A stretch of 41,062 bases of DNA. Source: a bacterium. GTDB taxonomy: Bacteria > JBDRGX01. Shown in pieces: positions 2,975 through 32,494 of this stretch. Below the pieces are notes generated by a model. That model was given only the letters and a program-made list of their open reading frames with translations. It did no database searches and was not told where the DNA came from. Made by a program: the position numbers and the translations under genes. Position 1 is the stretch's first letter; every line of letters begins with the position of its first letter. Location: the NCBI GenBank assembly GCA_043817485.1, contig JBDRGX010000078.1, forward strand, positions 1 through 41,062, given 5' to 3'.

Positions 2975-3170
2975 TACTTTTCCTTTCACTATTATAATAA
3001 TATTATTTTTCAAATGACATTTTCCACTTTTTAAATCGAGGAATATCGGCTCAACAATGTATTTATATTATTTAATTGATGCCAAATTCATCTCCCACAT
3101 TAAAGAAGGAAATGAATTAACACAATCTAATAAAAATAATTTAATTAAAAATTTTGTTTTTAGCAAATTT

Positions 3171-4355
3171 TTATTTTGAAGAATAATCGGTTCTATCTAC
3201 CATTGGACTTGTAGATAGGGAATACATTACAATATTTATTCCTAATTTAATACAAAGTTCTCTTACAGCATAAGAAGAATGTGGATGATTACCACTAGTT
3301 TCCATTAACCATCTACCAACAAGATCCATTGGAGTTAAAATCATTACCAATCGATTATTTATTTCTACACCAGTACAACGATAATCTTCTGGATTATATT
3401 CTTTAAAAGTTTGATCTGATGTTTGAGAATATGAAGGTAAAGAAGTAAATACATAAAAAGATTGAAAAACTTTATGACCAGCTGGAATCTTTTTTAAAGG
3501 ATATTCTGGAAAAAATTCTTTAGCAAAACCTTCAGCACTTTTTTGAAATGGAGAAGTATTTACAGGCCCCATACAATCATTAAACATTGCAAAACCACCC
3601 ATACCACCCATTTCTTTAGGTAAAAGATATTTTTTTAATCGTTCTTTTTCTTTATTAGTTAAACTAATACTTACATGTCCATAAAAAAGAATAAAAGGAA
3701 TTGTTTCTAATTCATCATCTAATAAATCAACTGCATTTCCTTCTATAGTACATCTTACTCCTGTTCTTTTATTCATTTCTTTAATCAATTCTGCCACTTT
3801 TATTGGAACAACATTATATACTGGACGGCTATTCCCATAATATGGATCTATCATTGTTGATGTCCATTTAACAACTGAAGATTTAAAAAATCCTTTAATT
3901 CCTTCTGGTGTAGAAATTATTTTAGCTTTTACTTTAGTAACTCCAAAATCTATATCTCCTTGTCCAATAGAAACTCCTTTTCCCATTTTTTCATATCTTT
4001 TTTCTTCTGTAGTTGAAATTTCCACTGCTTCTTTTATTTTTATTTGTGATTTCATAGAAGTAGTCCCTACCATTCCCTTGTTTTTAATATCTATTATATT
4101 TAATTCTGTTTTTACTTCTGGTTGCTGAATATCTTCTATTACTACCTTTTCTCTTTCTTCATATTTTGTTTCTGGAACTATTGCTCTTTCTTCATCATAT
4201 TTATTTACTACTTCAACTGGCAATATATCAACTTCTTCAAATTTAGGTAAAGAAGGAGGTAATTTAGATACAAAACACAATAAAAATATATGAAACAATA
4301 AAGATATAATTAAAGCTTTATTTTTTATTTTATTTAATTCTGTTCTTCGAGACAT
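3171..4355 (-). CDS. membrane-anchored DUF4159-domain protein with a TonB-like N-terminal anchor and charged linker
   Basis: The C-terminal ~230 aa match the remembered DUF4159 pattern (IPFILFYGH..., LKKYL...GGF..., FPEYPLKKIPAGHKVFQSFY, GVEINNRLVMILTPMDL, LGINIVMYSL). The N-terminus has one TM helix with an S-x3-H motif (SLLFH) followed by a Glu/Lys/Pro/Val-rich spacer. Confidence 0.75.
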   Translation of the reverse strand: MSRRTELNKIKNKALIISLLFHIFLLCFVSKLPPSLPKFEEVDILPVEVVNKYDEERAIVPETKYEEREKVVIEDIQQPEVKTELNIIDIKNKGMVGTTSMKSQIKIKEAVEISTTEEKRYEKMGKGVSIGQGDIDFGVTKVKAKIISTPEGIKGFFKSSVVKWTSTMIDPYYGNSRPVYNVVPIKVAELIKEMNKRTGVRCTIEGNAVDLLDDELETIPFILFYGHVSISLTNKEKERLKKYLLPKEMGGMGGFAMFNDCMGPVNTSPFQKSAEGFAKEFFPEYPLKKIPAGHKVFQSFYVFTSLPSYSQTSDQTFKEYNPEDYRCTGVEINNRLVMILTPMDLVGRWLMETSGNHPHSSYAVRELCIKLGINIVMYSLSTSPMVDRTDYSSK

Positions 4356-4439
4356 ACAAATCTCCTTTTCACAACATAATAGAATTCAACAAAATGAAAT
4401 TTTTTCTTACTATCCAATTTTATTATTCCACATCAAATC

Positions 4440-4734
4440 TATATATAACGACTTAAGTTAATTGGCATAAAAACTTAACTTTATCCATAAATACATTTGT
4501 TTGCATAAATTTTAATCCCTGTATCCCTGTACCTTTTCTCTTACATTTCGATATATATACCTTCTACAACAATGTCACCCCTTCGGGGTTTAATTGGTAA
4601 TTATTTAATAATTGCTATAATAATATCAGCCCTTCAGGCTTTAATATATATAACGACTTAACTTTATCCATAAATACATCTACTTGCATATTTTTTTTGA
4701 ATTGTTCGTTAACTATTTTTTGCCGTTATATATA
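4440..4734. repeat. 295-bp intergenic repeat, copy 1 (MITE-like or structured-RNA-like element)
   Basis: Near-identical to 8507..8801, with about a dozen differences by eye. Terminal inverted repeat TATATATAACGAC / GCCGTTATATATA. Internal direct sub-repeat (TATATATAACGACTTA...ACTTTATCCATAAATACAT) and two short GC hairpins (CCCC-TTCG-GGGG and AGCC-CTTCA-GGCT). Confidence 0.85.
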
Positions 4735-4795
4735 AAATAATTTAAAAATTGTAGATTAATCCCAATTATTTATCACTTTTATATTTTACATAAAT

Positions 4796-7700
4796 TTAAA
4801 ATTGCTGTTCAATGCTTATTTTCTTTGCTTTCTTTTTAATAGTTTCTAATAAACGACTTACTAAATCCTTTTTTATTTTTATTTCTTCTTTTTCTATTTT
4901 ACAAAACAAATCTTGATATATTTTTAAAGCTTTTTTGTTTTGATCCATATTTTCCCAACAACTTGCAATATAAAGATAAGCATTTATACTTGTTAAAGTA
5001 TTTGGATATTTTTCAATTACTTTTTGATACGCTTTTATTGTTTGTTCAAAATAAATTCCAGCATCTTTTTCATAAGTTTTAGTTACAGTAAGTTTATACA
5101 ACTTATTTGCTTTTTCTATTTCTTTTAAAGCTAATGCTTCTATACAATCATTTATTGATTCTTTTGCTTTTTCTACTTCTTTTGTTTTATTATATTTACT
5201 AATTACTTTATTATATTCTTGAATAGCAAGTTCATATTCTTTGTTATTAAAAAATAAATTTCCTTTTTTTAATTGAATTCTTGGAGCATCAAGATGTGAA
5301 GGAAAATGTAATAAAATTTTATCATAAGTTTTTACTGCTTCTATTATATTATTTTGTTTTTCATAACATTCAGCAATAGTTTCTAAACTATTAAAAACAT
5401 ACTTACTTTGAGGAAATAAATTAATAAATTGTTCATAAGATTTTTTTGCTTCTTCAAATTTCATTTGATTCCAATAAGATTCTGATAAAAAAAATCTTGC
5501 ATTTTCTAAAATTTCTTTTTCTTTGCTATATTTTTCTATTATTGATTGAAAAACAGGAATAGATTTTTCATAATCTCCATAATTATAAAATGCTTGACCA
5601 ATACTAAAATAAGCACAAGCTTTTAATTTTTCTTTTACATCTGGATTATCTATCACTTTTTTAAAATACTGAACAGCTTCATTAATATTTCGTTTCTTTA
5701 AAAACACAGAACCAATTTTATAAGTTGATTGAGAAGCATAATTTTTAACTTTAGAAAGTGAATTATAAATTTCTAAAGCTTTAGATTCATATTCTACATC
5801 TTTATCTGTAATTAAATTTCTGTAACACTCTGCTAATCCATATTTTGCATCATTTATTAAATCACTTCGAGAAAAATTATTTATTACTTCCTGATATTTT
5901 TTAATAGATACATCATATTTTTCTTGTTTTCTTAAAACATTAGCCAAAGATAAAATAATACGAGCTTTTATATTATATTTTTGAGATAGTGTTAAAGATT
6001 CATTAAAACTTTTTTCAGATTGTTGTAAAAGATTTTTATCTTCTTCTAAATTTCCTTTTTGCATTAAAAGCACGGCTTTTGCTTCACCTTCTGCTTGCAA
6101 AATTAATTTATTTATTTTTTCAATATCATTTAATTTTTGTTTTTGATAACATAAAGATAAATTATAAACAGATGGAAAAATAATATCAGAATTAGGATAT
6201 TTATAAATAATTTTTTCAAAATATTTTTCTGCATCTTGAAAATCATTTTCTATAAAATAACATTGTCCTATTTGATAAAAAATTTTATCACCAATTTCAT
6301 TACTTGCTATTTCATTTTCTAAACATAATTCATATTCTTTTTTTGCATCTTTATAATTTTTTTGATTATAATACAAAAAACCTTTTTTATATCTTACTCT
6401 AACTTTTGTTTTATCTCCTAATTCCTTTCTTGTTAAAATCTCATCACATTTTTTTAAAGCATCTTCTATTTTACCAGTTTTTTCTAAAAGATTTATAATT
6501 TGAAGTTCTGCTTGTCCAACTAATTCTCCTTCAGTTATTTCTTGAAAACATTTAAAAGCTTTATCTAATTGATTTGCAACATCATAAACTAAACCTAAAT
6601 TAAATTTTGCTTTTACTTTAACTTCATCATCTAAATTTTGTTGAGATAATATTTGAGTATAAAGAGAAATTGCTTCTTCTAATTTTCCTAATTCTTTTAA
6701 TACTAATCCAATATAAATTTGAGCGTCATATACATATCTTGTATCTTTATAATTTTCAAGTATTTTATTAAATTCTATTTTTGCTTGATCATATTCTTCT
6801 TTAAAATAATATATTTCTCCTATGTCTAATTGAGCTAATGCTTTAATTTCATTTTCTACATCACTTTCAATAATTTTTTTATCTTCATTAATAGCTAAAT
6901 TAATATCAATTTCTCTATAAATTTCACTTAATTTTATTTTTGCAAATTTATAAAAATTACTTTCTTTAGATATTTTCTTTAAATTATCCAAAGCTTTTTT
7001 AATATTATTTCTATCTTGAGTAATTAATTCAAAATAAACTAAACCTAATTTATAATAAACATTATCTATAATATAAGATTTGGGATATTTTGAGACAACT
7101 TCTTCTAAACTTGTAATAGATTTTTGAAGTTCTCCTTGTGTATAATAAATTTTTGCTTCTAAATAAATTACTTCATCTAAAATAAAAGTTTCAGAATATT
7201 TTTTTCTTATTTCACTAAGAAAATTTTTAGCCATTTCCAAATCATTTTTTTCAAAATAACATTTGCTTAAACCAATTAGTACTTTATCTGTTAAATCAGG
7301 ATCTTTTTCATAATCAAATTTTCCAGATATTTTGATTTGTTGTCCCTTATATAACTCATTATATTTCTTAATTGCTAATTCAAAATTTTCTAAAGTATAA
7401 TAACTATCAGCTAAAATCAATTTTGCATCATCTGCATATCTATGATTAGAATAATCTGGATTAATTTCAAAATATTTATAATTTGCTACGATAGAATTAT
7501 AATCTTTTAAATTAAACATACATTGAAACATTCTATATCGTGCTTCTGGAGATAAATCTGGATCATTAGGATATACCTTTTCTAATGTAATAAAACCATC
7601 TAATGCTTCTTTAAATTGACCCATTTTATAATAAGACCAAGCAATTCCATAATAAGCTAACTTTTCAGCTCTTGTATTTGGAAATCTTTTAATTACAATT

Positions 7701-8428
7701 TGATATTGTTCAATAGCTTTTTTATGCTCATTTTGACGCATATAAGCTTCTCCAATCTGAAATTGAGCATTACTTTGAAGTTCACTATCATTAGAATGTT
7801 GTATTAAATCTTTATAAATAGCTTCTGCTTTATCATATTCTTTTAATTCTCTATAACAAGCAGCCATTTTTTCTTTTACTTTATGCTCTAAATTAGAATC
7901 ATATTTTTCTGCAATAATCCATTTATGCTTATAAGATAAAACTTCTTTATATAAAACTAATGCTTTTTTTATTTCTTCAATATTAATTATTTCTTGTTGT
8001 TCTTTTAATTTTGCTTTATAATTATCTATTTTTTTATTCAATTTATTTTTTAAATCAAAATCTATTTCTTTTCCATAAATTGGAACTAATTTCTTATAGA
8101 TTTCAAATATATTTTTCAAAGAAGTATAATATATTTTTTTATCTTTATTTTTTTCTTTTAAAATTTCATATTCTTTTATTTTTTTTATTAATTTTTTCTC
8201 CATTTTCTCTTCAACAATTACTTTATTTTTTTCTTTTCTATTTAATTCAAAATATTGTTTTATAAAAGACTGTAAATCTGTATATTGTTCTATTGATGCA
8301 TTGTATTCCGAATGTTCAAATAAACTAGCAGCTTTTTCAGTTTTATATTTCAAATCAAAATGATTAGGAATATTATAAGATAAAAAAGAACTTACAGCAC
8401 AAATAACTAACCATATTTTAATAAACAT
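4796..8428 (-). CDS. very large tetratricopeptide (TPR) repeat protein, probably exported or periplasmic
   Basis: 1210-aa ORF with a hydrophobic N-terminus. It contains dozens of TPR-like 34-aa units (A.Y.IG..Y....Y..A...F..ii..YP.s....A.Y). Confidence 0.85.
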   Translation of the reverse strand: MFIKIWLVICAVSSFLSYNIPNHFDLKYKTEKAASLFEHSEYNASIEQYTDLQSFIKQYFELNRKEKNKVIVEEKMEKKLIKKIKEYEILKEKNKDKKIYYTSLKNIFEIYKKLVPIYGKEIDFDLKNKLNKKIDNYKAKLKEQQEIINIEEIKKALVLYKEVLSYKHKWIIAEKYDSNLEHKVKEKMAACYRELKEYDKAEAIYKDLIQHSNDSELQSNAQFQIGEAYMRQNEHKKAIEQYQIVIKRFPNTRAEKLAYYGIAWSYYKMGQFKEALDGFITLEKVYPNDPDLSPEARYRMFQCMFNLKDYNSIVANYKYFEINPDYSNHRYADDAKLILADSYYTLENFELAIKKYNELYKGQQIKISGKFDYEKDPDLTDKVLIGLSKCYFEKNDLEMAKNFLSEIRKKYSETFILDEVIYLEAKIYYTQGELQKSITSLEEVVSKYPKSYIIDNVYYKLGLVYFELITQDRNNIKKALDNLKKISKESNFYKFAKIKLSEIYREIDINLAINEDKKIIESDVENEIKALAQLDIGEIYYFKEEYDQAKIEFNKILENYKDTRYVYDAQIYIGLVLKELGKLEEAISLYTQILSQQNLDDEVKVKAKFNLGLVYDVANQLDKAFKCFQEITEGELVGQAELQIINLLEKTGKIEDALKKCDEILTRKELGDKTKVRVRYKKGFLYYNQKNYKDAKKEYELCLENEIASNEIGDKIFYQIGQCYFIENDFQDAEKYFEKIIYKYPNSDIIFPSVYNLSLCYQKQKLNDIEKINKLILQAEGEAKAVLLMQKGNLEEDKNLLQQSEKSFNESLTLSQKYNIKARIILSLANVLRKQEKYDVSIKKYQEVINNFSRSDLINDAKYGLAECYRNLITDKDVEYESKALEIYNSLSKVKNYASQSTYKIGSVFLKKRNINEAVQYFKKVIDNPDVKEKLKACAYFSIGQAFYNYGDYEKSIPVFQSIIEKYSKEKEILENARFFLSESYWNQMKFEEAKKSYEQFINLFPQSKYVFNSLETIAECYEKQNNIIEAVKTYDKILLHFPSHLDAPRIQLKKGNLFFNNKEYELAIQEYNKVISKYNKTKEVEKAKESINDCIEALALKEIEKANKLYKLTVTKTYEKDAGIYFEQTIKAYQKVIEKYPNTLTSINAYLYIASCWENMDQNKKALKIYQDLFCKIEKEEIKIKKDLVSRLLETIKKKAKKISIEQQF

Positions 8429-8506
8429 AATTATAACCCCTTTAACGCTTGCAAAATAAAAAACTTTTTTTTATATAGAAACTTCTTTAAAAAAAATTAC
8501 AATAAA

Positions 8507-8801
8507 TATATATAACGACTTAAGTTAATTGGCATAAAAACTTAATTTTATCCATAAATACATTTGTTTGCATAAATTTAATCCCTTATCCCATGTACCT
8601 TTTCTCTTACATTTAGTTATATATACCTTCTACAACATTGTCACCCCTTCGGGGTTTAATTGGTAATTATTTAATAATTGCTATAATAATATCAGCCCTT
8701 CAGGCTTTAATATATATAAAAACTTAACTTTATCCATAAATACATCTACTTGCATAATTTTTTTTGAATTGTTCGTTAACTATTTTTTGCCGTTATATAT
8801 A
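8507..8801. repeat. 295-bp intergenic repeat, copy 2
   Basis: Direct-orientation copy of 4440..4734, the same length and 4067 bp away. It lies immediately upstream (gene sense) of the TPR gene. Confidence 0.85.
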
Positions 8802-8916
8802 AGACAAAATAATCTTCATCTGAAATTACTTTTCAAAAAAACTACTTACCAATATTTGCTTATTTTCACTACATTTCATTATTTGTATAAAATTTAAAGT
8901 ACAAAAATTTTATAAA

Positions 8917-11487
8917 TTAAAATCCTGCATATATATTTAAAAATATTTTTTCACTATCCCATTCATCAGAAATATTTAAAGCATCATAATGTTCTGTAGT
9001 ATATCCAATGGTTACAGCAATATCATATCCACGAAATTGAGATTTATTAATAAGTTGAACAGATTTTAGAAAAGAAGTAAAATTATCAGTTGGATTTATG
9101 TTAAATATATCTGTTCTTTTTTGAACACCACCAACAAGTGATAAAGTAGGAGAAAATTCATATACTATTAAATTTGCAATAATTGTTTTATATTCATCTT
9201 TTTTTAAAGACCTTACATTTACTATTTTAGTCATATCTCCAGTTCCTATTGCTTTATTTCCTGTTGGAAAAGTAGTTTCAAGTTCAAAATTCATCAAATC
9301 TGGCATATTACGAGTTCTTTCATAATATTCCTTATTTTCATTAGACCAATTATAATTTTTTACAATATATTTTCCCATAGGTTTAAAATAAATTTGTCTA
9401 CAAAAATTAATTTTTTCTAAAGAAGAAAAAATAGAAGTTAAAGGAATTTTATAAAAAAATCTTGATAAAAAACCAATAGAATTAATTGTATTATTTTCTT
9501 TATTCTGATCATTGTTAATCCATTTGAATTTAGAAGTAAAATTAAATCCTTTTATTCCAGAATATTCAAACATAGCAAAAATTGTTTTAACTAAACTATC
9601 TTCATATAAAATCATATCATCAAAATATTTGCGAAAAGCACCCGGTTTTCCCATGTCTACAAAAATAGGAGAAGTTGAATCCATTGATGAAATATCAGCT
9701 TTTTTATCTATTTCAGAACGCCTTTGTTCTACACAATCATCTGGAATATTATCTGCAACTTTTTTTAATCTTGCTTCCCATACTAATTTACCTATAATAT
9801 TTTCCTTAAAGTTTATTTTTTTTTCTTGAGAAGTTATAAATTCAATAAAATTATTTTCACCTATATGAGGATTTCTTCTTTCACAAGGATCTTTTTGTGG
9901 AAAAGAAAGATAATCACCATATTCTGCATGTTTTCCTAAATCTACTTTTTCTTTTTCTAATTTAATATTTATGGAAAAATTCACATCTTTCCATAAATAT
10001 TCACTAATTAAACCTAACCCATCTCTATTGCGAGAATAAGCATAATCAAAATTACGATCATTTTCAAATTTATCTATTATTTCATTATTATTATTATCAT
10101 TCCCTTTTTCATATTCTGGAGAATCTTGAAAACAAATTAAAAAATCTTCTTCATAATCTGGAATACCATTTCTGTTTTCATCAATATCTGGAATATTATT
10201 TGCATCCTTATCTAAACCAGGAAAAACTCCATCTTTATCACCTAACATAAAACCCTCTGATTCTATGAAAAGTAAAGCATCCGGAACATTATCTGCATAA
10301 CGATCATTATCATCATTATCATCTACATATACATAATCTGAAAACCCTTTTCTTCTTGCTGTTTTCAAAGAACCCCAGTTATCAGTTATTGATTGCCAAT
10401 ATGATTTTTGCGAATTAAAAGTATCATAAACTGGAACAAAAGAAAATAAATAATAAGGATCTACATAATATTTTTCTAATCCTATTTTTAAATTTTTACC
10501 AAAAAATCTTTCTCCTTTTAAAAAATAAGCATAAGTTTGTCCTTTTGTTTTATCTCTATAAATTTCTTCATATTTAGAATTTATTACTTCACTATAAGCA
10601 TAAGATACATCTGCATATCCTTGTGAATCTATATTAACATAATCAGAAGATTTTTTTAATTCTTTAAAACTTTTTCCATCAAAAAATTTTTCATTACTAA
10701 CTAATTCTGTTTCAAAATTCCAACCCCATTTTGAACCTCTTAAATCCATTCCTATAAGCGATTGACCTGTAAGATCTCCTATTTTATCTGGATTTGGATC
10801 ATAACCATATAAAGAATTCTTTTTATTAGAATCTTTTCCAAAAGAATAAAAATTACAATGATTCATATAGGTAACACCTAATCTCATTATATCTCCTAAA
10901 CGAAATACATTATGAACTCCATATAAATAATGAGATTCTAATGTCGAATAGATGCTACTAGTTGGAGTATCCTCTCTACTATTAAAAAAAACTTCTCTTG
11001 ATATAGAACTTTTAGAATTATTTAGACGAACTGGTTTATCTGTATTAGTAGCTAAAATAGTAAATTCATTTCTATCATTAAATATATCCCATCTAAATCC
11101 ATGAAATTGAGATTTTTTAAAAGTAAGGTTTGTAAAACTGGTTTTTATTTCATCCCCAAACATAATTCGAGAATGAATTTTATTTTCACCAAAAGAATCT
11201 TTAGCAATAATTAAATGATTCATAAAAGATTGATATTGAGGAGCTTTATTTAAAATATTACCAGTAGTAAGAGGTGTTTCTCTTCCAAAAGTTAAAACAT
11301 TAATTCCTTCAAGTAAATATCCTCCAAAAGGATCATACAATACTTGCGTATTTGCTTTTTGAACCCAATCTTCATAATCTTCTTCACCATAATTTTTATA
11401 GTCTCCATTAATATTTACTTCAGCAAAAGCGCCATTTATTAATCCCAAAAACATAATTAAAAACGAAATAATTAAATTTTTCATCAA
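8917..11487 (-). CDS. putative outer-membrane beta-barrel protein with acidic thrombospondin-type-3-like Ca-binding repeats
   Basis: Signal peptide MMKNLIISFLIMFLGLINGAFA. The C-terminus IFLNIYAGF has alternating hydrophobics and a terminal Phe, as in an OMP beta-signal. Central region: DDNDDNDRYADNVPD...DKDANNIPDIDENRNGIPDYEED. Confidence 0.5.
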   Translation of the reverse strand: MMKNLIISFLIMFLGLINGAFAEVNINGDYKNYGEEDYEDWVQKANTQVLYDPFGGYLLEGINVLTFGRETPLTTGNILNKAPQYQSFMNHLIIAKDSFGENKIHSRIMFGDEIKTSFTNLTFKKSQFHGFRWDIFNDRNEFTILATNTDKPVRLNNSKSSISREVFFNSREDTPTSSIYSTLESHYLYGVHNVFRLGDIMRLGVTYMNHCNFYSFGKDSNKKNSLYGYDPNPDKIGDLTGQSLIGMDLRGSKWGWNFETELVSNEKFFDGKSFKELKKSSDYVNIDSQGYADVSYAYSEVINSKYEEIYRDKTKGQTYAYFLKGERFFGKNLKIGLEKYYVDPYYLFSFVPVYDTFNSQKSYWQSITDNWGSLKTARRKGFSDYVYVDDNDDNDRYADNVPDALLFIESEGFMLGDKDGVFPGLDKDANNIPDIDENRNGIPDYEEDFLICFQDSPEYEKGNDNNNNEIIDKFENDRNFDYAYSRNRDGLGLISEYLWKDVNFSINIKLEKEKVDLGKHAEYGDYLSFPQKDPCERRNPHIGENNFIEFITSQEKKINFKENIIGKLVWEARLKKVADNIPDDCVEQRRSEIDKKADISSMDSTSPIFVDMGKPGAFRKYFDDMILYEDSLVKTIFAMFEYSGIKGFNFTSKFKWINNDQNKENNTINSIGFLSRFFYKIPLTSIFSSLEKINFCRQIYFKPMGKYIVKNYNWSNENKEYYERTRNMPDLMNFELETTFPTGNKAIGTGDMTKIVNVRSLKKDEYKTIIANLIVYEFSPTLSLVGGVQKRTDIFNINPTDNFTSFLKSVQLINKSQFRGYDIAVTIGYTTEHYDALNISDEWDSEKIFLNIYAGF

Positions 11488-11562
11488 TCAAACCTCCAAA
11501 ATAATTTAAACATTAAATATTATTTTATTAAATAATATTATAATTTTACGATTTTTAACCTT

Positions 11563-12051
11563 TTACATCATTTCTTTACTATCTTCAATATTTTCTACTG
11601 CTGGTTGAAAAGAAAATGTTGTTTTTTTTCCATCTTTAAGAATAATTTTTTGAGTAATGTCCATTATTTTAATAATAACACCATGATAAACTTTATTTTC
11701 TGCTTCAATAATTAACAAATTTTTTGGAATTCTTTTTCTTTGATATTGAAATATTTCTTCATAATTTTTTAAATCTACTTTTACCCCATTTAATTTAATA
11801 ACACCTTCTTTAACTATTTTATGGCCTGTAGTAATTTCATCTTCCATAAAACAAATTTTTAATTGTTGTTCTACTTTAGCTGGTTGGTTTAAAAAAGAAT
11901 TGTCATCACTTGGAATTTTAATGCTAATTCCTACAATAATACTAATAGTATTAATACACATTAAAAAAATAAGAAGATTAAATATACAATCTATCATTGG
12001 AGTAAGATCTATTTCTGTATTTCCCCATCTTTCTCTTTTTCGTAAATTCAC
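11563..12051 (-). CDS. exbD: ExbD/TolR family protein (second copy)
   Basis: N-terminal EIDLTPMIDCIFNLLIFLM signature with the conserved TM Asp. 162 aa. Confidence 0.8.
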   Translation of the reverse strand: MNLRKRERWGNTEIDLTPMIDCIFNLLIFLMCINTISIIVGISIKIPSDDNSFLNQPAKVEQQLKICFMEDEITTGHKIVKEGVIKLNGVKVDLKNYEEIFQYQRKRIPKNLLIIEAENKVYHGVIIKIMDITQKIILKDGKKTTFSFQPAVENIEDSKEMM

Positions 12052-12164
12052 AATTTACCTCATTTATTTTTTTATAAAAAATAAAACTTACAAATTTATT
12101 GTATTACAAAAATTCAAAAAAATATATCCACCTATACTATAATAATTATAAATAAAATAAAAAA

Positions 12165-12599
12165 TTATTTTCCAGATTTTACTTCATTAGTAACAGCAAA
12201 AGTAAATTTTTGTACTCCAGATTTTTTTGCTATATCCATTACTTCAGATATTGTTTTATAAAAAACTTTTTGATCTGCTTTAATAACTAAAGTTTCTGTT
12301 TTAAGTTCTCTTAATTTACTGCCTAAATTTTCTCTATCAACTTCATCAAAATTTACTTCCATTTTGCCTGGAGTTAAAATAGCACCCGTTTCATTAACTT
12401 TTGCTGGATATAAATACATAATAACATCTGTTTTCTTTTCTTCTTCATATATTTCAGCAAGAGGAAGAGATATTCCAGAACTTTTTACCATTGTTAAAGT
12501 GACTAAAAAGAAAATAATTAAATTAAAAACTGCATCAATCATGGGTGTTAAATCAAAATCAACCCATGAAGTATCTTTTTTCTTTTTTAAAAAAGTCAT
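12165..12599 (-). CDS. exbD: ExbD/TolR family protein (first copy)
   Basis: DFDLTPMIDAVFNLIIFFLV signature. 144 aa. The start overlaps the exbB stop by 4 nt. Confidence 0.85.
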   Translation of the reverse strand: MTFLKKKKDTSWVDFDLTPMIDAVFNLIIFFLVTLTMVKSSGISLPLAEIYEEEKKTDVIMYLYPAKVNETGAILTPGKMEVNFDEVDRENLGSKLRELKTETLVIKADQKVFYKTISEVMDIAKKSGVQKFTFAVTNEVKSGK

Positions 12600-13285
12600 T
12601 TTTTTCCTCTAATAAGTAAAGTATCTATTAAATCAACAGTAGAAACTTCTATATCAGTAATATAATTATCTATTTGTTTTCTAATAATAGTGTAAAAAAC
12701 AATTACTGGAATTGCAATCATTAAACCTGCTTCTGTTGTAATAAGAGCTTGTGAAATTCCTCCAGCCAATTGATCTGGTCTTACACCTGCTGGATTACAA
12801 GCTATTACATTAAATGCTTGAATCATTCCCATAATAGTACCTAAAAGCCCTAATAAAGGAGCTATTTTAGATACTGTTTCTAAAATATTAAGATTTGCTT
12901 CAAATGCTGGTAATTCTTTTTGTCCAGCATCTTGAATAGCAGATTTAATTTCATCTACATATTTATCAGAAGAAACATTTGTATTTAAATCTCCAATATG
13001 TCGAATTAAACCTTCTTTTAAAATACCTGTTAAAGGACTTTTTATGGTATTACAGTATTCAATAGATTTTTCTAAAGCATCTTGTTTATTTTTATTTTCT
13101 GCAAATATACTTTTTATTTTTTCTATTAATTGATCAGCTGATATCCTTCCTTTAATTTTTTTTAAAAAAAGCAATCTTTCAATAATATAAGTTAAACCTA
13201 TTAAAGAACAAATACCTAAAGGAACCATCATAGACCCACCAGCTACACACCATCCCCAAAATTTAAAGTACCATGTTCCACCCAT
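12596..13285 (-). CDS. exbB: MotA/TolQ/ExbB proton-channel family protein
   Basis: 229 aa with the three-TM layout. The C-terminal conserved block APLLGLLGTIMGMIQAF...GGISQALITTEAGLMIAIP is typical of ExbB/TolQ. Confidence 0.85.
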   Translation of the reverse strand: MGGTWYFKFWGWCVAGGSMMVPLGICSLIGLTYIIERLLFLKKIKGRISADQLIEKIKSIFAENKNKQDALEKSIEYCNTIKSPLTGILKEGLIRHIGDLNTNVSSDKYVDEIKSAIQDAGQKELPAFEANLNILETVSKIAPLLGLLGTIMGMIQAFNVIACNPAGVRPDQLAGGISQALITTEAGLMIAIPVIVFYTIIRKQIDNYITDIEVSTVDLIDTLLIRGKK

Positions 13286-13402
13286 TTTTAAAACCTCCTT
13301 TAAAATTTTTACCTTTTAAACAAATTATATTTGATTGGAAAAAATTTAATTAAAATAAAAAAATTGTCAATATAAAAATACATTACATTTATATAATTAA
13401 AT

Positions 13403-13873
13403 TTACCTATAAAATTTTTTGTATTTTGGCAATAAAATTTCTGCCATCACAAAACCTTTTTGATAATCTTTTAACTCATTTAAAAAAGGTACAGATATTT
13501 TTTCTTCAGTTTTTGAAAATAATTTTTTTTTGTTTTGCATTATTTCTTGTTTTTGATGCATTTGTTCTAACATAAAAATAAGTTCTTTATTTTTTTCTTT
13601 TTCTTCTCCTAAACATTGTAATATTTTTTCATATTCTTGTTTTGAAACAACTTCTTCTGGTTTTTGTTCTAAAAAAATCTCTAAAAAACCTTTTTCTTCT
13701 ATAGGGGAATCTAATTGTTCTTGTTGTTCTATAGGGAAATCCAATTGTTTTTGTTGTTGTAAAACATTTTTTTCTTTTTTTATCAAATCTTTTTTTTGTT
13801 TTTGTTCTAAATTTTGTTTTAATGTTATTATTATCCATATAACAATAATAACAAAAGTGATTAATTGTTCCAT
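13403..13873 (-). CDS. small membrane-anchored hypothetical protein with a Gln/Glu-rich tandem repeat
   Basis: 156-aa ORF with an N-terminal TM helix. A 30-bp tandem DNA repeat (13698..13757) encodes QQKQLDFPIE/QQEQLDSPIE. No family recognised. Confidence 0.4.
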   Translation of the reverse strand: MEQLITFVIIVIWIIITLKQNLEQKQKKDLIKKEKNVLQQQKQLDFPIEQQEQLDSPIEEKGFLEIFLEQKPEEVVSKQEYEKILQCLGEEKEKNKELIFMLEQMHQKQEIMQNKKKLFSKTEEKISVPFLNELKDYQKGFVMAEILLPKYKKFYR

Positions 13874-13885
13874 TTTTTTATCCTC

Positions 13886-16800
13886 TTATTTTATTATACT
13901 AAATTTTCCTTTAAAAACATTTTTTTTTCCTTCTTCATTAAGTCCTTCAAAATAATAAAGATATATTCCACTACTTAATTTTTCTGGATTCCACTCAATT
14001 TTTTTTTGTTTTTTCTCAAAAATTATTTCAGATATTAATTCTCCAACAATATTGTAAATTTTAATTTTATTTTCATTTGCTTCTATTTTATCAGGCAAAA
14101 CAAAAGTTATTACTTGATGTTTTCTCCATAAAAATGGATTAGGATATATAAGAAATTTTTCTGATAATCCTAAATTAAAATTATAATTAAAAACAGTTTC
14201 TGTTTCTACTTTATTATATGCCTTATCCATAGCAATAAATTTAATTTTATATTCTCCTTCTAAATTTAAAAAACTTATTGGTATTAAAAATTTCAATTCT
14301 GTTTTTTCTTTATTAAAAAATTGCAATTCTAAATCAACTTTTTTTTGTGATGAATATTCACAATATGCTTTATTTACAAATATAAGCCCTTCTGAAGAAG
14401 AAAGAATTACTTCACATTTTCCTAATGATATATTAACTTTTGTTTTTATCTCAGGAATTATTTCATCAACAGGATTAATCGCTCCAAGCGGAATATTATT
14501 TTCTGTATTTAAAACTTTTGTTGTGTTAATACATGGTATTCCCCAAAAATTATTAGCATAAACTGGAATAACTGCATAATAATAAAAATAAGAATAATTC
14601 AATATTTTTTGTTCATTACCTTCTTTTAAATATTTCATATCAATATCTAAAAAAGTTGTTGTATCTATAAATTCTGTTTTTTCTTTACTAACACTTGCTA
14701 TAATATTTATATCATCAATTTGCATTCCATCTTTTTCAATTCCATCATCACCAGTATAATCATCTTTTCCAGAAAAAAAATCTTCCATTTCTTTTTTTAT
14801 ATTATTTACAGTACCTATTTCTGTAATTTTTGATCCTTCATTTATTTTTATGTATTTTTTTCTTAAAATAAGCCATTCTTTTACATCATTTATATTTCCT
14901 TCTGAAATCCATGAAATTTTTATATCTCCATTTTTCATTTCTTTTTCTTCATTTTCTATTTTCTTTTTTTCTATTACCCAATCCAGTTTTATATCTTCTT
15001 TCATTTTTACTTCAGGTAATTTATCTAAAATATCAGCAGAATAAGTGAAAGAAAAATTTTCAATTTTTTCTGCATATAAATTAGAAATTATTATGTCTAT
15101 TTTTAAAACATTTGTCCCAAAATCTTTTATTAAAACTTGTGCACATTGACTTGGATTATATAAAAACACTTCTTTTACTTCTACTTTATTATTAGCCAAA
15201 TGTTTAATAAGCCATACTCCATAACCTGCTGTTCCATAATAATCAAAAATTTCTTTTTGTGATTCTGGAATAAATGAAGATTTAAAATTAATTACTAATG
15301 TTCCTTGTCTTCCTTCTGGTAAAAAACGAATACACTTAAATCCTAAAAATTCAGGCACTTCTTCTTGAGACATTTTTTTAATTAAAGGATAATTTTTATG
15401 AATATATGCAGGATAAATTTGTATATTAGGAAAATCTTCTCCTTTTGAATAATGATATGCTGAATATTTTTGTAAATCATCTTTATGTGTTTGCGTAAGA
15501 CCCAAATCTAATTTATAATTTTCACCCGTAAAATAATTCCAAAGTGTAAATTCTTTAAAAAGAGAGCCAAATTTTTCTGCATATCTTAATGAAAAAACAT
15601 TTCCAAAATTAACTAACTTTTCATAAGATCCTTCTGCAAAACTTTCATAAAGAACTTTTATTACTTCATTTCCTAATTTTTCTGATAAAAATTTTGTCCA
15701 AAGAAATCCTCCATATTCATATGAACCATCAAATGTAGTAATACTTTTATCAAAATATAAAAATCGATTTAAAAGAAATTTTTTAATATCTTGATAACCA
15801 TCTAATTCTGCAGAATCAATTTCAAATCCTTTATTTTGAAAAATTTTTATTTCACCATTTTTTAATCCTATTACTAAATCTACATCTTCATCATAATCTA
15901 TATCTGCAAAAGAAATAAAAAAGGTTTCTTTTAATAAAGGCAAATTATTATTTGTTAATATAAATTTAGAATTAAAAACATTTCCTTCATTCCGATAAAA
16001 ATAAATTTTTTCATTTTCTCCATTTTCTCCAGAAATTAAAAGATCTAAATCTTTATCTTTATCTATATCAACTAATACAGGCACAGAATAAGAACCAACA
16101 TTTATATCCAAATATTTTTTAGAAACACATTCCCATAAATATTCTTCTTTTTCTACTTTTTTAATCCTTTTATATAAACTTATAGTTCCATTTTCTTTTC
16201 CAACAATAAGTTCTAATTCACCATCTCCATCTAAATCTCCTAATGTAGGTGATGTATTTTTATCTCCCGTATCTATAGATGGCCATATTTTCCCCCAATT
16301 TACACCATCATCTTCAAATTTAATACCTATTTCTGGTTTTTCTGGCACAATATTTTGTATACTAATACTCCCTTTAAAAAATTCTATTTTTCCATTTTCT
16401 TGTCCAATAACTAAATCCAACACATTATCTTTATCTAACAAATAAAATGCTGGCCTAAGTCTTGTTTTTCCCAAAAACTGCATTTTACTTCCAATATTTA
16501 ATTTACCTGTTTGATTTAAATATATTATCAATTCATCTTTTTCATTACCAATAATTACATCTAAATAACCATCTTCTAACAAATCTACTATTACAGGGGA
16601 AGCAAAATCTCCTACATCAATTAATTTTGAATTATTATTTTCAAAAGATTGAATTAAATTATTTTGAGTATCTTCTTGCCATAAAAAAACATCTTCTTTT
16701 TTTCCATCATAAACAATAGCTTCTCCCCATACTGCACAATTTTCCATAAACCAATTAGGCATTAAAAAATTATAACCAAATTGGATTCCATGAAAAAATT

Positions 16801-17539
16801 CATGAGCACAAGTTGTTTTTAAACATTCTTTAATCCTTGCTTTTCCAACCCATTTATAATAATTTACATTTATAGCAAAAAAAGGAGCAGCTGTTCCAAC
16901 AAAACTATTTGGCTTCATAGTAAGATACAAATCTATGGTTGCAAATCCACCCCATCCACCATCACTTCCAAAAATATAAACATCAATTCTTTCATCTCCA
17001 CCATTATCTTTTACCATTTCATCTGTTAATGGCTTTTTAAACTTCATTTTTTCAATATAAATTCGATAACTTTTTTCATAAGCTTCAGCACAAATATCAA
17101 TAATATCAGGAATCCCATTTATAGGAAATTCATCATAAGGATAAGCATGATAACCAAATTTAGTATAATGAAATTTAAAATGCGGTGTATCATAAATTAA
17201 TGGTAAAGAATCTTTACATGCCCAAGAATTTATATTTCCGGGTCTTGTAAAAAGTCCTTTTAATTTATTTCTTTTTTCAAATGAAATTTCTTCCCATTTT
17301 TTTTTTACTGTTAAAATATAAGGAGTTAAAGATTTTTGAAATTCATTTTGGGGAAAAGTATTTTTATCAAAACTTTGTTCTAAAATTGTTATTGCTTCTT
17401 GAACATCAATATCTGCATATAAAAAAGAAACAAAAAAATTTATAATAACAAAAAATAAAATTCCTTGCAATTTTCTGCAAGATATTTTTTCAACAAGATA
17501 TTTATTATTATATGGTTGATGACCCCACATGGTAACCAC
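13886..17539 (-). CDS. secreted HExxH zinc-metalloprotease-like protein with FG-GAP/VCBS repeats and a T9SS-type (Por/FlgD-Ig-like) C-terminal sorting domain
   Basis: TCAHEFFHGIQ motif near aa 245. Five FG-GAP-like units (e.g. GDLDGDGELELIVG, VDIDKDKDLDLLISG, ADIDYDEDVDLVIG). The C-terminal ~85 aa (IYPNPF...IKIYNIVGELI...LSSGIYLYYF...KFSIIK) match the T9SS CTD pattern. Confidence 0.7.
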   Translation of the reverse strand: MVTMWGHQPYNNKYLVEKISCRKLQGILFFVIINFFVSFLYADIDVQEAITILEQSFDKNTFPQNEFQKSLTPYILTVKKKWEEISFEKRNKLKGLFTRPGNINSWACKDSLPLIYDTPHFKFHYTKFGYHAYPYDEFPINGIPDIIDICAEAYEKSYRIYIEKMKFKKPLTDEMVKDNGGDERIDVYIFGSDGGWGGFATIDLYLTMKPNSFVGTAAPFFAINVNYYKWVGKARIKECLKTTCAHEFFHGIQFGYNFLMPNWFMENCAVWGEAIVYDGKKEDVFLWQEDTQNNLIQSFENNNSKLIDVGDFASPVIVDLLEDGYLDVIIGNEKDELIIYLNQTGKLNIGSKMQFLGKTRLRPAFYLLDKDNVLDLVIGQENGKIEFFKGSISIQNIVPEKPEIGIKFEDDGVNWGKIWPSIDTGDKNTSPTLGDLDGDGELELIVGKENGTISLYKRIKKVEKEEYLWECVSKKYLDINVGSYSVPVLVDIDKDKDLDLLISGENGENEKIYFYRNEGNVFNSKFILTNNNLPLLKETFFISFADIDYDEDVDLVIGLKNGEIKIFQNKGFEIDSAELDGYQDIKKFLLNRFLYFDKSITTFDGSYEYGGFLWTKFLSEKLGNEVIKVLYESFAEGSYEKLVNFGNVFSLRYAEKFGSLFKEFTLWNYFTGENYKLDLGLTQTHKDDLQKYSAYHYSKGEDFPNIQIYPAYIHKNYPLIKKMSQEEVPEFLGFKCIRFLPEGRQGTLVINFKSSFIPESQKEIFDYYGTAGYGVWLIKHLANNKVEVKEVFLYNPSQCAQVLIKDFGTNVLKIDIIISNLYAEKIENFSFTYSADILDKLPEVKMKEDIKLDWVIEKKKIENEEKEMKNGDIKISWISEGNINDVKEWLILRKKYIKINEGSKITEIGTVNNIKKEMEDFFSGKDDYTGDDGIEKDGMQIDDINIIASVSKEKTEFIDTTTFLDIDMKYLKEGNEQKILNYSYFYYYAVIPVYANNFWGIPCINTTKVLNTENNIPLGAINPVDEIIPEIKTKVNISLGKCEVILSSSEGLIFVNKAYCEYSSQKKVDLELQFFNKEKTELKFLIPISFLNLEGEYKIKFIAMDKAYNKVETETVFNYNFNLGLSEKFLIYPNPFLWRKHQVITFVLPDKIEANENKIKIYNIVGELISEIIFEKKQKKIEWNPEKLSSGIYLYYFEGLNEEGKKNVFKGKFSIIK

Positions 17540-17798: not shown

Positions 17799-18467
17799 TT
17801 ATTTAATTTCCATTGCTATTTCATAAATTTTTTCTACAACTTCATCAATACTCATATTAGTAGTATCAATAACTATAGCATCTTTTGCTATTTTCAGAGG
17901 ACCATCTTTTCTTATTTTATCTCTTTCATCTCTTATTTTAATTTCTTCTTTTAACTTTTCTATATTTACCTTTTCTCCTCTTGCAAAAAAATCCTTAAAT
18001 CTTCTTTGAGTTCTTTCTTCTAAAGAAGCATCAAGATAAATTTTAATTTCTGCTTGCGGAAATACTACTGTGGTAATATCTCTTCCTTCAGCCACTACTC
18101 CACCCAATTTTCCTATTTTTTGTTGTTGATTAACTAAAATATCTCTTATTTCTTTTACTTGAGCAATATAAAACGCATTTTTAGTAATTTCTTGACTTCG
18201 AATTTCATAAGTAACATCTTTTTCATTTAAAAATACTTTTAATTCATTATTTTCCATTTTAAATTCAATATTGCTTTTAATACTAAGTTTTATTAAAGAA
18301 GCAACATCTTCTAAATTTATATTTTCAGATATTGCTTTTAAAGTAATTGCCCGATACATTGCTCCAGTATCAAGATACATATATTTTAATTTTAAAGCTA
18401 ATTTTTTAGCAATAATGCTTTTTCCACTTCCAGCAGGTCCATCAATAGCAATAATTAGTTTTTTCAT
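17799..18467 (-). CDS. cmk: cytidylate kinase
   Basis: IAIDGPAGSGKSIIAKKLALKL.Y.YLDTGAMYRA is the N-terminus characteristic of Cmk. 222 aa. Overlaps the aroA stop by 4 nt. Confidence 0.95.
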   Translation of the reverse strand: MKKLIIAIDGPAGSGKSIIAKKLALKLKYMYLDTGAMYRAITLKAISENINLEDVASLIKLSIKSNIEFKMENNELKVFLNEKDVTYEIRSQEITKNAFYIAQVKEIRDILVNQQQKIGKLGGVVAEGRDITTVVFPQAEIKIYLDASLEERTQRRFKDFFARGEKVNIEKLKEEIKIRDERDKIRKDGPLKIAKDAIVIDTTNMSIDEVVEKIYEIAMEIK

Positions 18468-19750: not shown

Positions 19751-19761
19751 TTGTTCCTTTC

Positions 19762-20160
19762 TTACTTGCAAATAATAAAATTTTTAAGTTTTTCAAATGT
19801 TTTTTTTCCAATTCCTTTAATTTTCATTATTTCATCAATAGATTTAAACCCTTTGTGAGTTTCTCTATATTCAATAATTCGCTTTGCTTTTTTATCTCCA
19901 ATACAAGGAAGCATTTTTAATTCTTCTACAGATGCTTGATTGATATTTATTTTTTTAGATTCTTCTTTTTGAAAATTTGCTTTTCCTGTTTTTTCATTTT
20001 CTGAATTTTCTATTTTAGTTTCAACTTGTCTTATTTTTGTTTCTATTTCAACATCACTTAAACAAGTTCTTGCAATTAAAAAAATAACTGATAAAAATAC
20101 AATCACGCCAAAACAAAAAATTACATTTCTTTCTTCATTATTAAAAAGTTGCTTGATCAA
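19762..20160 (-). CDS. comEA: ComEA-like helix-hairpin-helix DNA-binding protein
   Basis: N-terminal TM helix, then INQASVEELKMLPCIGDKKAKRIIEYRETHKGFKSIDEIMKIKGIGKKTFEKLK, a ComEA HhH domain. Confidence 0.8.
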   Translation of the reverse strand: MIKQLFNNEERNVIFCFGVIVFLSVIFLIARTCLSDVEIETKIRQVETKIENSENEKTGKANFQKEESKKININQASVEELKMLPCIGDKKAKRIIEYRETHKGFKSIDEIMKIKGIGKKTFEKLKNFIICK

Positions 20161-26712: not shown

Positions 26713-26742
26713 AATAATTATAAAAAAATAGGGCAAATAAAA

Positions 26743-27815: not shown

Positions 27816-27904
27816 TGGTGCCGAAGGTCGGACTTGAACCGACACGAGTTTATACAACTCGGTGGATTTTGAGTCCACTGTGTCTGCCATTTCACCACTT
27901 CGGC
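27816..27904 (-). tRNA. tRNA-Leu (anticodon CAA) with a long variable arm and an encoded CCA
   Basis: The reverse complement folds as acceptor GCCGAAG/CTTCGGC, anticodon stem GTGGA/TCCAC with loop CT-CAA-AA, variable arm CGAGTTGTATAAACTCG, T arm GTCGG-TTCAAGT-CCGAC, then ACCA. Confidence 0.95.
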
Positions 27905-32356: not shown

Positions 32357-32381
32357 TAGATTTCCTTTCTAAATTTTAATT

Positions 32382-32463: not shown

Positions 32464-32494
32464 AGTTTTAAAAAAAACTTTAAAAATTATTTTT

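Follow-up and report, generated by a model that had tools for sequence, protein, structure and literature searches.

What does an ExbB-ExbD-ExbD motor energize when no recognizable TonB is encoded beside it? The question is raised by a gene cluster on contig JBDRGX010000078.1, of which a 41-kb stretch (41,062 nt, hereinafter designated the window) was analyzed and in which the three motor genes lie among genes for a giant tetratricopeptide-repeat (TPR) protein, a large outer-membrane β-barrel and a membrane-anchored DUF4159 protein. We propose that the window probably carries the minimal core of a conserved Ton/Tol-like trans-envelope system of uncultured, Bacteroidota-related bacteria (FCB group), an envelope machine that is apparently widely conserved and so far undescribed. 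ExbB, two ExbDs, a plug-less barrel, the giant TPR protein and the anchored DUF4159 protein are present and genomically linked across phyla. The preliminary description of this DNA had suggested a machine of new composition driven by the proton-motive force (PMF), and this suggestion is supported: the synteny, barrel and TonB-absence checks given below all came out in its favor. The genes of the proposed core are, in gene sense:

12596-13285, minus strand: ExbB/TolQ-type proton-channel subunit, 229 aa (Pfam MotA_ExbB, PF01618, 106.6 bits against a cut-off of 22.9)
12165-12599, minus strand: ExbD/TolR paralog 1, 144 aa, with DLTPMID (Pfam ExbD, PF02472, 74.7 bits against a cut-off of 25.4)
11563-12051, minus strand: ExbD/TolR paralog 2, 162 aa, with DLTPMID (same family and cut-off, 60.1 bits)
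8917-11487, minus strand: large outer-membrane β-barrel, 856 aa (signal peptide, C-terminal ...YAGF, AlphaFold2, Foldseek)
4796-8428, minus strand: giant TPR protein, 1210 aa, with a short N-terminal hydrophobic segment (TPR-type Pfam families, including TPR_6, YbgF and BamD)
3171-4355, minus strand: anchored DUF4159 protein, 394 aa, the proposed energy transducer (Pfam DUF4159, PF13709, 99.7 bits against a cut-off of 25.9; AlphaFold2)

The motor assignment is secure: all three proteins score above their Pfam cut-offs, the transmembrane Asp of DLTPMID is kept by both ExbD paralogs, and the TM2/TM3 motifs of ExbB (APLLGLLGTIMGMIQAF and ALITTEAGLMIAIP) are readable in its sequence, bearing out the ExbB-ExbD-ExbD claim. 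The two ExbDs share 29% identity and are old duplicates, and the proton-pathway motifs of the motor are intact. The best NCBIfam model is tolQ for ExbB (89 bits; cut-off 221) and tolR for both ExbDs (46 and 27 bits; cut-off 127), scores so far under the cut-offs that none of the three is a TolQ or TolR equivalog. Compared with 44 bits against TolQ and 37 bits against ExbB from the PDB, the window ExbB scores 68-108 bits against cluster-linked ExbBs of other phyla, suggesting that the motor forms a subfamily of its own, which accompanies the cluster.

The usual partners of such a motor are missing. ORFs of at least 100 aa were compared with Pfam and NCBIfam (33 scanned; ORFs 17799-18467, 18464-19771 and 19762-20160, which are cmk, aroA and comEA-like, and every ORF below 100 aa lay outside the Pfam scan), and no TonB_C, TolA, TolB or Pal domain was found by Pfam in any of the 33, in agreement with the earlier statement that no TonB C-terminal domain is encoded nearby. 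Nor do the scanned ORFs match core machinery of the type IX secretion system (T9SS) in Pfam or NCBIfam, namely GldK/L/M/N, SprA or the PorW/SprE equivalog.

The candidate transducer is the anchored DUF4159 protein, which has two recognizable parts:

4269-4316, minus strand: transmembrane helix ALIISLLFHIFLLCFV, residues 14-29, with S18xxxH22, after a basic N terminus (read from sequence)
3216-3827, minus strand: DUF4159 head, residues 177-380, class I glutamine amidotransferase-like fold, with GGFAMFND (Pfam, AlphaFold2, Foldseek)

As had been claimed, the protein is a fusion of an N-terminal transmembrane helix with a DUF4159 domain, the Pfam match covering residues 177-380. Because the N terminus (MSRRTELNKIKNK) is basic, an N-in orientation of the anchor is predicted, and the SxxxH signature is present at the motif level as S18xxxH22 within ALIISLLFHIFLL. 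AlphaFold2 predicts a helix at residues 2-30, disorder at residues 41-140 (pLDDT <50), a stretch that forms a Pro-, Glu- and Lys-rich linker, and an α/β domain at residues 144-382. The modeled helix, disordered linker and globular head make up the body plan of TonB and TolA.

The head is the same domain as PDB 4I66 (Hoch_4089 of Haliangium ochraceum, from structural genomics; Foldseek E 1.8e-11, TM-score 0.78 on the target; hmmsearch E 2e-36), a stand-alone protein of ~200 aa with unassigned function that, unlike the window protein, has neither transmembrane helix nor linker. The fold is also weakly similar to that of gamma-glutamyl hydrolase (Foldseek E 5e-3). The nucleophile Cys of class I glutamine amidotransferases (in the G-x-C-x-G elbow) is absent, its position reading GGF[A/L][M/F] followed by acidic residues, and G253, G254 and F255 are invariant in the head alignment. 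The replacement of the nucleophile by GGF... implies that the head is probably a non-catalytic binding module. Among ~8.3 million full texts, the Pfam paper of 2015 is the only one to mention DUF4159; the system may have been described under a different name.

The anchor is conserved together with the head. All 22 anchored orthologs match DUF4159 in Pfam and none of the 22 matches a TonB or TolA family there. The transmembrane His recurs as [S/A]xxxH in 17 of 21 full-length anchored orthologs from different phyla, is invariant in a 17-sequence subset (A5), and is followed by a conserved basic stretch, VKFIQRAPRLxKxLELxKxP. Against the PDB, the short-helix profile built on this subset, a very short query, retrieved only unrelated helices and neither TonB nor TolA; the anchor and linker region alone gave nothing useful in Pfam at a maximum E of 10. 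The DUF4159 gene directly follows exbD in loci L028, L029, L032, L047, L066 and L069 (L numbers denote the related loci introduced below), and this is the usual place of tonB in canonical operons. Taken with its architecture, the DUF4159 protein is likely a TonB/TolA-type transducer.

The 1210-aa protein consists entirely of TPRs, as previously described, with matches to 19 TPR-type Pfam families. NCBIfam tol_pal_ybgF (TIGR02795) matches it in nine stretches (226 bits; cut-off 90.1) and BamD in six; it has the CpoB/YbgF repeat type, yet is no CpoB equivalog. Its 112 bits against the PorW_SprE model (cut-off 250) reflect generic TPR similarity. Gene-family clustering places TPR orthologs of 1040-1100 aa immediately after the barrel gene in 62 of 88 related loci, usually with a gap of 0-20 nt, and jackhmmer with the window proteins labels a TPR ORF in 70 of the 88. 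The window protein and its orthologs in 49 loci (e.g., L061 7871-11005) begin with a short hydrophobic segment in which neither a canonical lipobox nor a basic n-region was found. In most orthologs this segment is followed by F.PTP.E (PTPxE), where the window copy reads NIPNHFD. To judge from these motifs, the N terminus is a putative atypical signal or anchor.

The 856-aa protein matches no Pfam or NCBIfam family, Plug and TonB_dep_Rec included. It has a signal peptide, and members of its family end in ...AGF; a C-terminal aromatic residue is the usual signal of barrel proteins. An AlphaFold2 model (19-sequence alignment; pLDDT 64, pTM 0.64) shows ~26-28 long β strands, and every strong Foldseek match of this model is an outer-membrane barrel, the best being Deinococcus SlpA (7zgx/8ae1; E 1e-11 to 1e-10), followed by LptD, MtrB and TonB-dependent transporters. 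The claim of a membrane barrel therefore holds, and the protein is the founding member here of a barrel family for which neither Pfam nor NCBIfam has a model. Weak matches to Pfam SlpA_C in two of 19 homologues agree with the structural matches to SlpA, LptD and MtrB; the TM-scores are low (0.2-0.3), however, and the 856-aa protein has no SLH domain as in SlpA, no LptD N-terminal domain and no cytochrome partner as for MtrB. Compared with these barrels, its family alone has a central invariant Asp-rich block:

10015-10332, minus strand: Asp/Asn-rich block of the barrel, ~residues 386-491 (invariant columns of alignment A2)

Invariant columns of the block include D389, N390, D391, D392, D394, D398 ... 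D463, N465-467, D471, D476 and D480, and AlphaFold2 confidence is low over it. The preliminary description had spoken of calcium repeats: the Asp/Asn-rich block is real and invariant, whereas a match to a Ca-binding family was not obtained in Pfam at a maximum E of 10, where nothing was retrieved, the thrombospondin type-3 Ca-binding repeat family included. By its motif, the block is a putative Ca-binding loop insert.

Do these genes belong together? The barrel family comprises at least 437 tblastn-confirmed stretches in GTDB species-representative genomes, from Latescibacterota, Ignavibacteria, Gemmatimonadota, Handelsmanbacteria, KSB1, Zhuqueibacterota and Kryptoniota, as well as from metagenome-assembled genomes labeled Bacteroidota and, in shorter forms, from Elusimicrobiota. 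A 9-sequence subset of the barrel alignment was used for the loci scan, as the first barrel alignment was too divergent, and 88 related loci, drawn from seven or more lineages of uncultured bacteria, were analyzed by jackhmmer with the eight proteins of the window cluster and by gene-family clustering. The barrel (OMP) family is present in 88 of the 88 loci, a family of proteins bearing a C-terminal domain (CTD) in 68, the ~1050-1100-aa TPR family in 62, the DUF4159 family in 62, a ~311-aa PorP/SprF-like barrel in 39 and ExbB in 25.

Conserved orders of OMP, TPR, ExbB/ExbD and DUF4159 genes recur in these loci, and the synteny expected by the earlier reading is thereby confirmed. In pattern (a), the order is OMP-TPR-ExbB-ExbD-DUF4159(transmembrane)-DUF4159(lipoprotein) (L028, L029, L032, L066 and L069), with the anchored DUF4159 gene only in L047. 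Pattern (b), ExbB-ExbD-ExbD-CTD protein-PorP-like-OMP-TPR-DUF4159-DUF4159 (L043, L045, L059, L060, L061 and L072), has the order of the window. Pattern (c), OMP(x2-3)-TPR-ExbB-ExbD-ExbD, is found in Latescibacterota and Gemmatimonadota. Some Latescibacterota genomes carry two to three paralogous clusters, as in OZ253462.1 (L025, L026 and L078) and OZ242318.1 (L014, L049 and L068). Since the arrangement recurs across phyla, the cluster is more than chance, and accidental abutment is effectively excluded. A canonical TonB beside an orthologous exbBD, which would have pointed to an ordinary Ton system, was sought in the same loci: gene-family clustering found no TonB_C protein next to exbBD in the 88 loci, and jackhmmer found none in the ORFs of these loci and the window, with an approximate seed from the E. 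coli TonB C terminus and low sensitivity. Small genes upstream of the barrel in L009 that had been suspected to encode ExbB/ExbD have no such matches and were rejected.

No close relatives of the window lineage were found in the collections searched. A word-indexed protein search returned only three relatives for DUF4159 and a handful for the OMP, all on short contigs, and a metagenome scan returned four distant loci. As a separate observation, the Elusimicrobiota-type barrel homologues (~680 aa; L001, L002 and L005 at ~9000-14000, and L003/L004) are flanked by a PorV-like UPF0164 barrel on one side and an Amidase_3 protein on the other, in the company of SpoIID and amidase proteins whose tails are of the CHU_C/FlgD_ig type; L003 and L004 also carry, 6 kb from the barrel, a separate set of the order TPR-(339 aa)-ExbB-ExbD-ExbD.

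Fuller clusters in relatives contain more than this core. A conserved F5/8-type-C protein of ~575-600 aa with a CHU_C/FlgD_ig (T9SS type-B) CTD is found in them, and the ~311-aa barrel gives a weak but full-length PorP_SprF match (E 6e-4); of the 88 loci, 68 have the CTD protein and 39 the PorP-like barrel placed right upstream of the large barrel. A second DUF4159 paralog in fuller clusters is a lipoprotein with a ~250-aa N-terminal domain, marked by the motifs GYTPxxFTVF..N....KIxFDP and RMGIIxxT. This domain is fused to the second DUF4159 domain in Ignavibacteria-type clusters and also occurs alone, directly after exbD, in pattern (c) clusters of Latescibacterota and Gemmatimonadota (examples of the domain: L006 13030-14508, L061 12454-14016, L025 17820-18587 and L071 17832-18626); in its stand-alone form it matches no Pfam family at a maximum E of 10. 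Other accessories are DUF5683-like, ASH/Ig-like, CBM9-like, PpiC-type rotamase and DUF6785-type membrane proteins; in the full-text literature, DUF5683 appears only in an unrelated nematode paper. Hidden Markov models of 13 accessory families, those of the CTD and PorP-like proteins included, retrieved nothing from the window. ExbB, the two ExbDs, the barrel, the TPR protein and the anchored DUF4159 protein alone are thus retained there, and we take them as the functional core.

A different neighborhood is seen in Latescibacterota loci L031, L034, L037, L040 and L044 (~2000-7000), in which a gene for a 272-aa HEAT-repeat protein, co-directional with the anchored DUF4159 gene, comes directly after it and precedes one for a ~560-aa FG-GAP x6/UnbV_ASPIC protein; these may form a further accessory module. 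By jackhmmer, neighbors of Latescibacterota DUF4159 genes had appeared to be MXAN_6640-like proteases, a label rejected because Pfam reads them as FG-GAP_3 x6 plus UnbV_ASPIC.

Two further genes precede exbB in the window:

13886-17539, minus strand: 1217-aa protein with a MXAN_6640-type HExxH domain, FG-GAP and a T9SS CTD (Pfam/NCBIfam domains); membership in the system uncertain
13403-13873, minus strand: 156-aa Gln/Glu/Lys-rich protein, anchored at its N terminus (no family match)

With these, all eight co-directional ORFs of the preliminary description are recovered on the minus strand at the positions listed. The HExxH/FG-GAP/T9SS-CTD architecture given for the 1217-aa protein is likewise correct, with the HExxH domain scoring under its cut-off (E 5e-33, 115 bits; cut-off 140); FG-GAP_3 is also matched, and the sorting domain is recognized by Por_Secre_tail (32 bits; cut-off 27) and TIGR04183 (24.8 bits; cut-off 23). 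In relatives, the slot of this protein is taken by an unrelated T9SS-CTD protein. It has no homology to the relatives' CTD family or to the Latescibacterota FG-GAP/UnbV_ASPIC neighbors, its match to the latter being an artifact that runs through the FG-GAP repeats alone. Position and T9SS tag are the only ties between this protease and the system, and its involvement is uncertain. The 156-aa protein, described earlier as an anchored repeat protein, does have an N-terminal anchor, and its repeat is modest. It matches nothing in Pfam or NCBIfam, even in Pfam at a maximum E of 10, and jackhmmer finds a homolog in none of the 88 loci; it is lineage-specific rather than conserved, and core membership is unlikely.

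How might the core work? The ExbB pentamer and ExbD1/ExbD2 dimer would use the PMF to move the S18xxxH22-bearing helix of the DUF4159 protein, much as ExbBD acts on TonB and TolQR on TolA. The disordered Pro/Glu/Lys-rich linker of ~100 residues would span the periplasm, and the non-catalytic head would stand in for the TonB C-terminal domain or TolA domain III, docking on the TPR/barrel platform at the outer membrane, directly in the window and probably via the outer-membrane lipoprotein DUF4159 paralog in relatives. The giant TPR protein, with its CpoB/YbgF- and BamD-like repeats, would scaffold the link and may bind the linker, in the way that CpoB binds TolA. The transmitted force would gate or remodel the barrel, in which the invariant Asp-rich insert is perhaps a Ca-stabilized plug or latch. 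Because fuller clusters place an F5/8-type-C CTD protein and a PorP/SprF-like barrel before the large barrel, the task of the machine is probably tied to surface-exposed binding proteins: it would handle or move surface proteins or import what they capture, a task to which the carbohydrate-binding accessories of fuller clusters also point. Siderophore-type uptake is an unlikely task, and the two to three paralogous clusters per Latescibacterota genome argue against a housekeeping role of the Tol-Pal type.

Several observations weigh against a Ton/Tol-like system with DUF4159 as its transducer. The anchor and linker have no significant sequence similarity to TonB or TolA, and the transmembrane His is missing from some anchored DUF4159 orthologs, among them ones of the ExbBD-bearing clusters L020, L022, L083, L087 and Latescibacterota type (c). 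Conversely, His-bearing orthologs occur in clusters without adjacent ExbBD (L018, L019, L023, L026 and L035), which would therefore need a motor in trans, as TonB systems do, and ExbB lies within 10 kb in only ~25-31 of the 88 loci. DUF4159 proteins elsewhere mostly have other architectures, and we know of no outer-membrane-protein-binding role for this fold. The N-terminal hydrophobic segment of the TPR protein, with neither basic n-region nor lipobox, makes its topology ambiguous. The genome is seen only over 41 kb, and a canonical TonB or TolA may lie elsewhere in it.

The gene spacing in the window bears on the same question. The genes from the 1217-aa gene through the barrel gene form a tightly packed block: the 1217-aa and 156-aa genes are 12 nt apart, 117 nt separate the latter from exbB, exbB and exbD1 overlap by 4 nt, exbD1 and exbD2 are 113 nt apart, and the barrel gene begins 75 nt after exbD2. 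The spacers between the barrel and TPR genes (489 nt) and between the TPR and DUF4159 genes (440 nt) are the only long ones in the cluster, which is therefore no single tight operon, and contain one copy each of a ~300-nt repeat:

8507-8812, no strand assigned: intergenic repeat copy 1, between the barrel and TPR genes, with a hairpin on the gene strand at 8706-8694
4440-4745, no strand assigned: intergenic repeat copy 2, between the TPR and DUF4159 genes, with a hairpin at 4640-4628

The two copies are AT-rich and 94-99% identical. Each contains a terminator-like hairpin on the gene strand, an internal sub-repeat of ~73 nt and two short GC hairpins whose loops read GAAG. The repeat matches no Rfam family, and its overall fold is not significant (z-score -0.96); it may represent either a miniature mobile element or a cassette with a regulatory role. 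One transcript across the cluster is doubtful because of these terminator-like hairpins, which set off the TPR and DUF4159 genes in the window and so count as a further point against the proposed unit.

Other machines could be built from the same parts. One would be linked to T9SS or resemble the gliding apparatus, with ExbBD working through the DUF4159 and TPR proteins to secrete, anchor or propel CTD-bearing surface proteins and with the barrel as translocon or track. The CTD protein and PorP/SprF-like barrel immediately upstream of the barrel in relatives (in the 68 and 39 loci given above) speak for it, as do the PorV-like UPF0164 and CTD-bearing amidase/SpoIID proteins beside Elusimicrobiota-type barrels and the T9SS-tagged protein upstream of exbB in the window; the order of PorP-like protein, outer-membrane component and motor also recalls the porP-porK-porL-porM-porN gene order on which the comparison is based. 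Neither the CTD-protein nor the PorP-like family is present in the window, however, homology to GldK/L/M/N, SprA or Glt proteins is absent, the PorW/SprE score of 112 bits against a 250-bit cut-off is generic to TPRs, and SprA is not among the top 50 Foldseek matches of the barrel. We consider this explanation rather unlikely. We are equally tentative about a wider proposal, doubtful as it stands, in which ExbBD, DUF4159, TPR, Asp-block barrel, PorP/SprF-like barrel and type-B-CTD protein together form a new PMF-driven outer-membrane machine that exports, anchors or moves CTD-tagged surface proteins in parallel to GldLM-driven T9SS/gliding. Such a parallel machine would be a second system made of Ton-type parts, would range over the FCB group and Elusimicrobiota, and would possibly have an evolutionary link to the T9SS/gliding apparatus.

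Envelope maintenance of the Tol-Pal type, with a TolQ/TolR-like motor, a TolA-like DUF4159 protein and a CpoB-like TPR protein, and with the barrel replacing Pal and TolB in tethering or constriction, is distinctly improbable. It would account for the best matches of ExbB and both ExbDs to tolQ/tolR models and TolQ structures, for the nine tol_pal_ybgF matches of the TPR protein, for the resemblance of the DUF4159 anchor helix to S18/H22 of TolA, and for the cell-wall amidases and SpoIID that adjoin Elusimicrobiota-type barrel homologues. Yet TolB and Pal were found neither in the scanned window ORFs nor among the conserved neighbor families of the 88 loci, the Tol model scores are all far under their cut-offs, two to three clusters per Latescibacterota genome are unlike single-copy Tol-Pal, and the clusters are associated with carbohydrate-binding and CTD proteins.

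Energized import like that by SusC/SusD or TonB-dependent transporters, in which lectin-like proteins would capture a substrate at the surface and a plug-less barrel pulled by DUF4159 would import it, appears very unlikely. Clusters that are multi-copy and variable within a genome, accessory proteins of F5/8-type-C, CBM9-like and Ig-like types, the fold-level match of the barrel to TonB-dependent transporters and the placement of the transducer gene in the tonB position are all compatible with import; the barrel, however, has no Plug domain, TonB box or TonB_dep_Rec match, neither glycoside hydrolases nor inner-membrane transporters are consistently linked in the related loci, and the window version is devoid of surface-binding accessories. 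The earlier statement that this is not a standard TonB nutrient-uptake system stands as to composition, TonB_C being absent; the system may nonetheless serve nutrient uptake.

Chance abutment, or the juxtaposition of exopolysaccharide export genes (for a TPR protein and a porin, as in AlgK/AlgE or PelB) with those of an ordinary ExbBD served by a TonB encoded elsewhere, could draw on the Wza-like (950-3013) and Wzz-like (36-950) genes just downstream, a weak Foldseek match to PelBC at rank 38 and the long repeat-bearing spacers, and merits next to no credence, being largely refuted by the ExbBD-OMP-TPR-DUF4159 synteny in at least seven lineages, with Wza/Wzz conserved neighbors in none of the related loci and no glycosyltransferase or synthase linked.

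The remainder of the window, which is very AT-rich (22-29% GC) and carries nearly all of its genes on the minus strand, is housekeeping in character: cmk, aroA, comEA-like, RadA, MlaD, PhoU and Pst genes, RNase P RNA, tRNA-Leu and an insertion sequence (IS) integrase. The only structured RNAs detected are a bacterial class A RNase P RNA (26414-26715, plus strand, 209.6 bits) and tRNA-Leu(CAA) (27816-27904, minus strand). A secreted 609-aa protein of Reg_prop (two-component-regulator propeller) repeats, without sensor or kinase domain, is encoded at 20141-21970, and its repeats form a six-copy 80-nt repeat family at the DNA level. The phosphate-transport operon at 31682-38384 (pstS, pstC, pstA, pstB ... 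pstB, phoU) is interrupted between two PstB-like ATPase genes by a DNA methylase gene (34043-34900, N6_N4_Mtase) and an unannotated gene for a 216-aa protein (33396-34046); the interruption, together with a 197-nt stretch of 73% identity common to the ATPase genes (32625-32821 and 35136-35332), points to an insertion accompanied by duplication. Near the contig end, just past the IS-type integrase gene (38482-39642, rve domain), lies a tandem pair of 96-nt repeats (40735-40969; 98% identical, 139-nt spacing), each with two perfect hairpins (CCCCTTTATTAAAGGGG and GGCATTCCGAAGGAATGAC).

A Ton/Tol-like system of this composition would matter beyond one contig. To our knowledge, Ton, Tol, Mot, Agl and GldLM form one stator class of five channel and two plug subunits, stators of this class are the only known means of delivering energy from the inner to the outer membrane in Gram-negative bacteria, and the recognition of each further transducer or outer-membrane partner has to date brought a new envelope function to light. 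The window adds as candidates a DUF4159 transducer head, a large-barrel family with an invariant acidic insert and an obligate TPR scaffold of ~1100 residues, parts that are conserved across poorly studied phyla (Ignavibacteria, Latescibacterota, Gemmatimonadota, KSB1, Zhuqueibacterota and Kryptoniota). If the proposal is true, at least three families labeled unknown would gain functions and TonB-less ExbBD operons an explanation; if the parallel machine for CTD proteins is true, DUF4159 would represent a force-transducing head domain of a new class. Culturable carriers exist among relatives of Ignavibacterium or Gemmatimonas.

Compared with T9SS and Bacteroidota gliding (PorP-PorKLMN, SprB-SprF), fuller clusters similarly pair a type-B-CTD protein with a PorP/SprF-like barrel and combine a stator motor of the MotA/ExbB class, whose stoichiometry is 5:2, with a TPR component that recalls PorW/SprE. 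The motor, however, is ExbBD rather than GldLM, the cluster has no GldK, GldN or SprA, and the window copy lacks the CTD-protein and PorP-like genes. The AglRQS-Glt/Nfs machinery of Myxococcus xanthus likewise has one TolQ-like and two TolR-like genes, large TPR proteins, outer-membrane barrels and non-canonical TonB-like anchors, and the task of Agl is not uptake; this likeness is architectural, drawn from the arrangement and the generic TPR/barrel content and not from sequence homology. GltG and GltJ carry TonB_C-like domains, of which there are none here, and the window system belongs to FCB-type lineages.

With Tol-Pal the system shares an ExbB and ExbDs that score best against TolQ/TolR models, an anchor resembling the SxxxH helix of TolA and a TPR protein of CpoB/YbgF type. 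Unlike Tol-Pal, the cluster has no TolB, Pal or TolA domain III, contains two ExbD paralogs and a TPR protein ~4x the size of CpoB, and is present in several copies in some genomes. The Ton system differs in its TonB_C head, in place of which the window has the glutamine-amidotransferase-like α/β fold of DUF4159, in its 22-stranded barrels with Plug and TonB box, neither of which is recognizable in the ~26-28 modeled strands here, and in lacking a giant TPR protein as obligate neighbor. Despite these differences, the two systems have in common an ExbB/ExbD motor, with both families above Pfam thresholds in the window, and a partner that is predicted to be N-in and single-pass, with SxxxH, a long disordered Pro/Glu/Lys-rich linker and a globular C-terminal head; in several relatives the gene for this partner directly follows exbD, and a large barrel is its presumed target.

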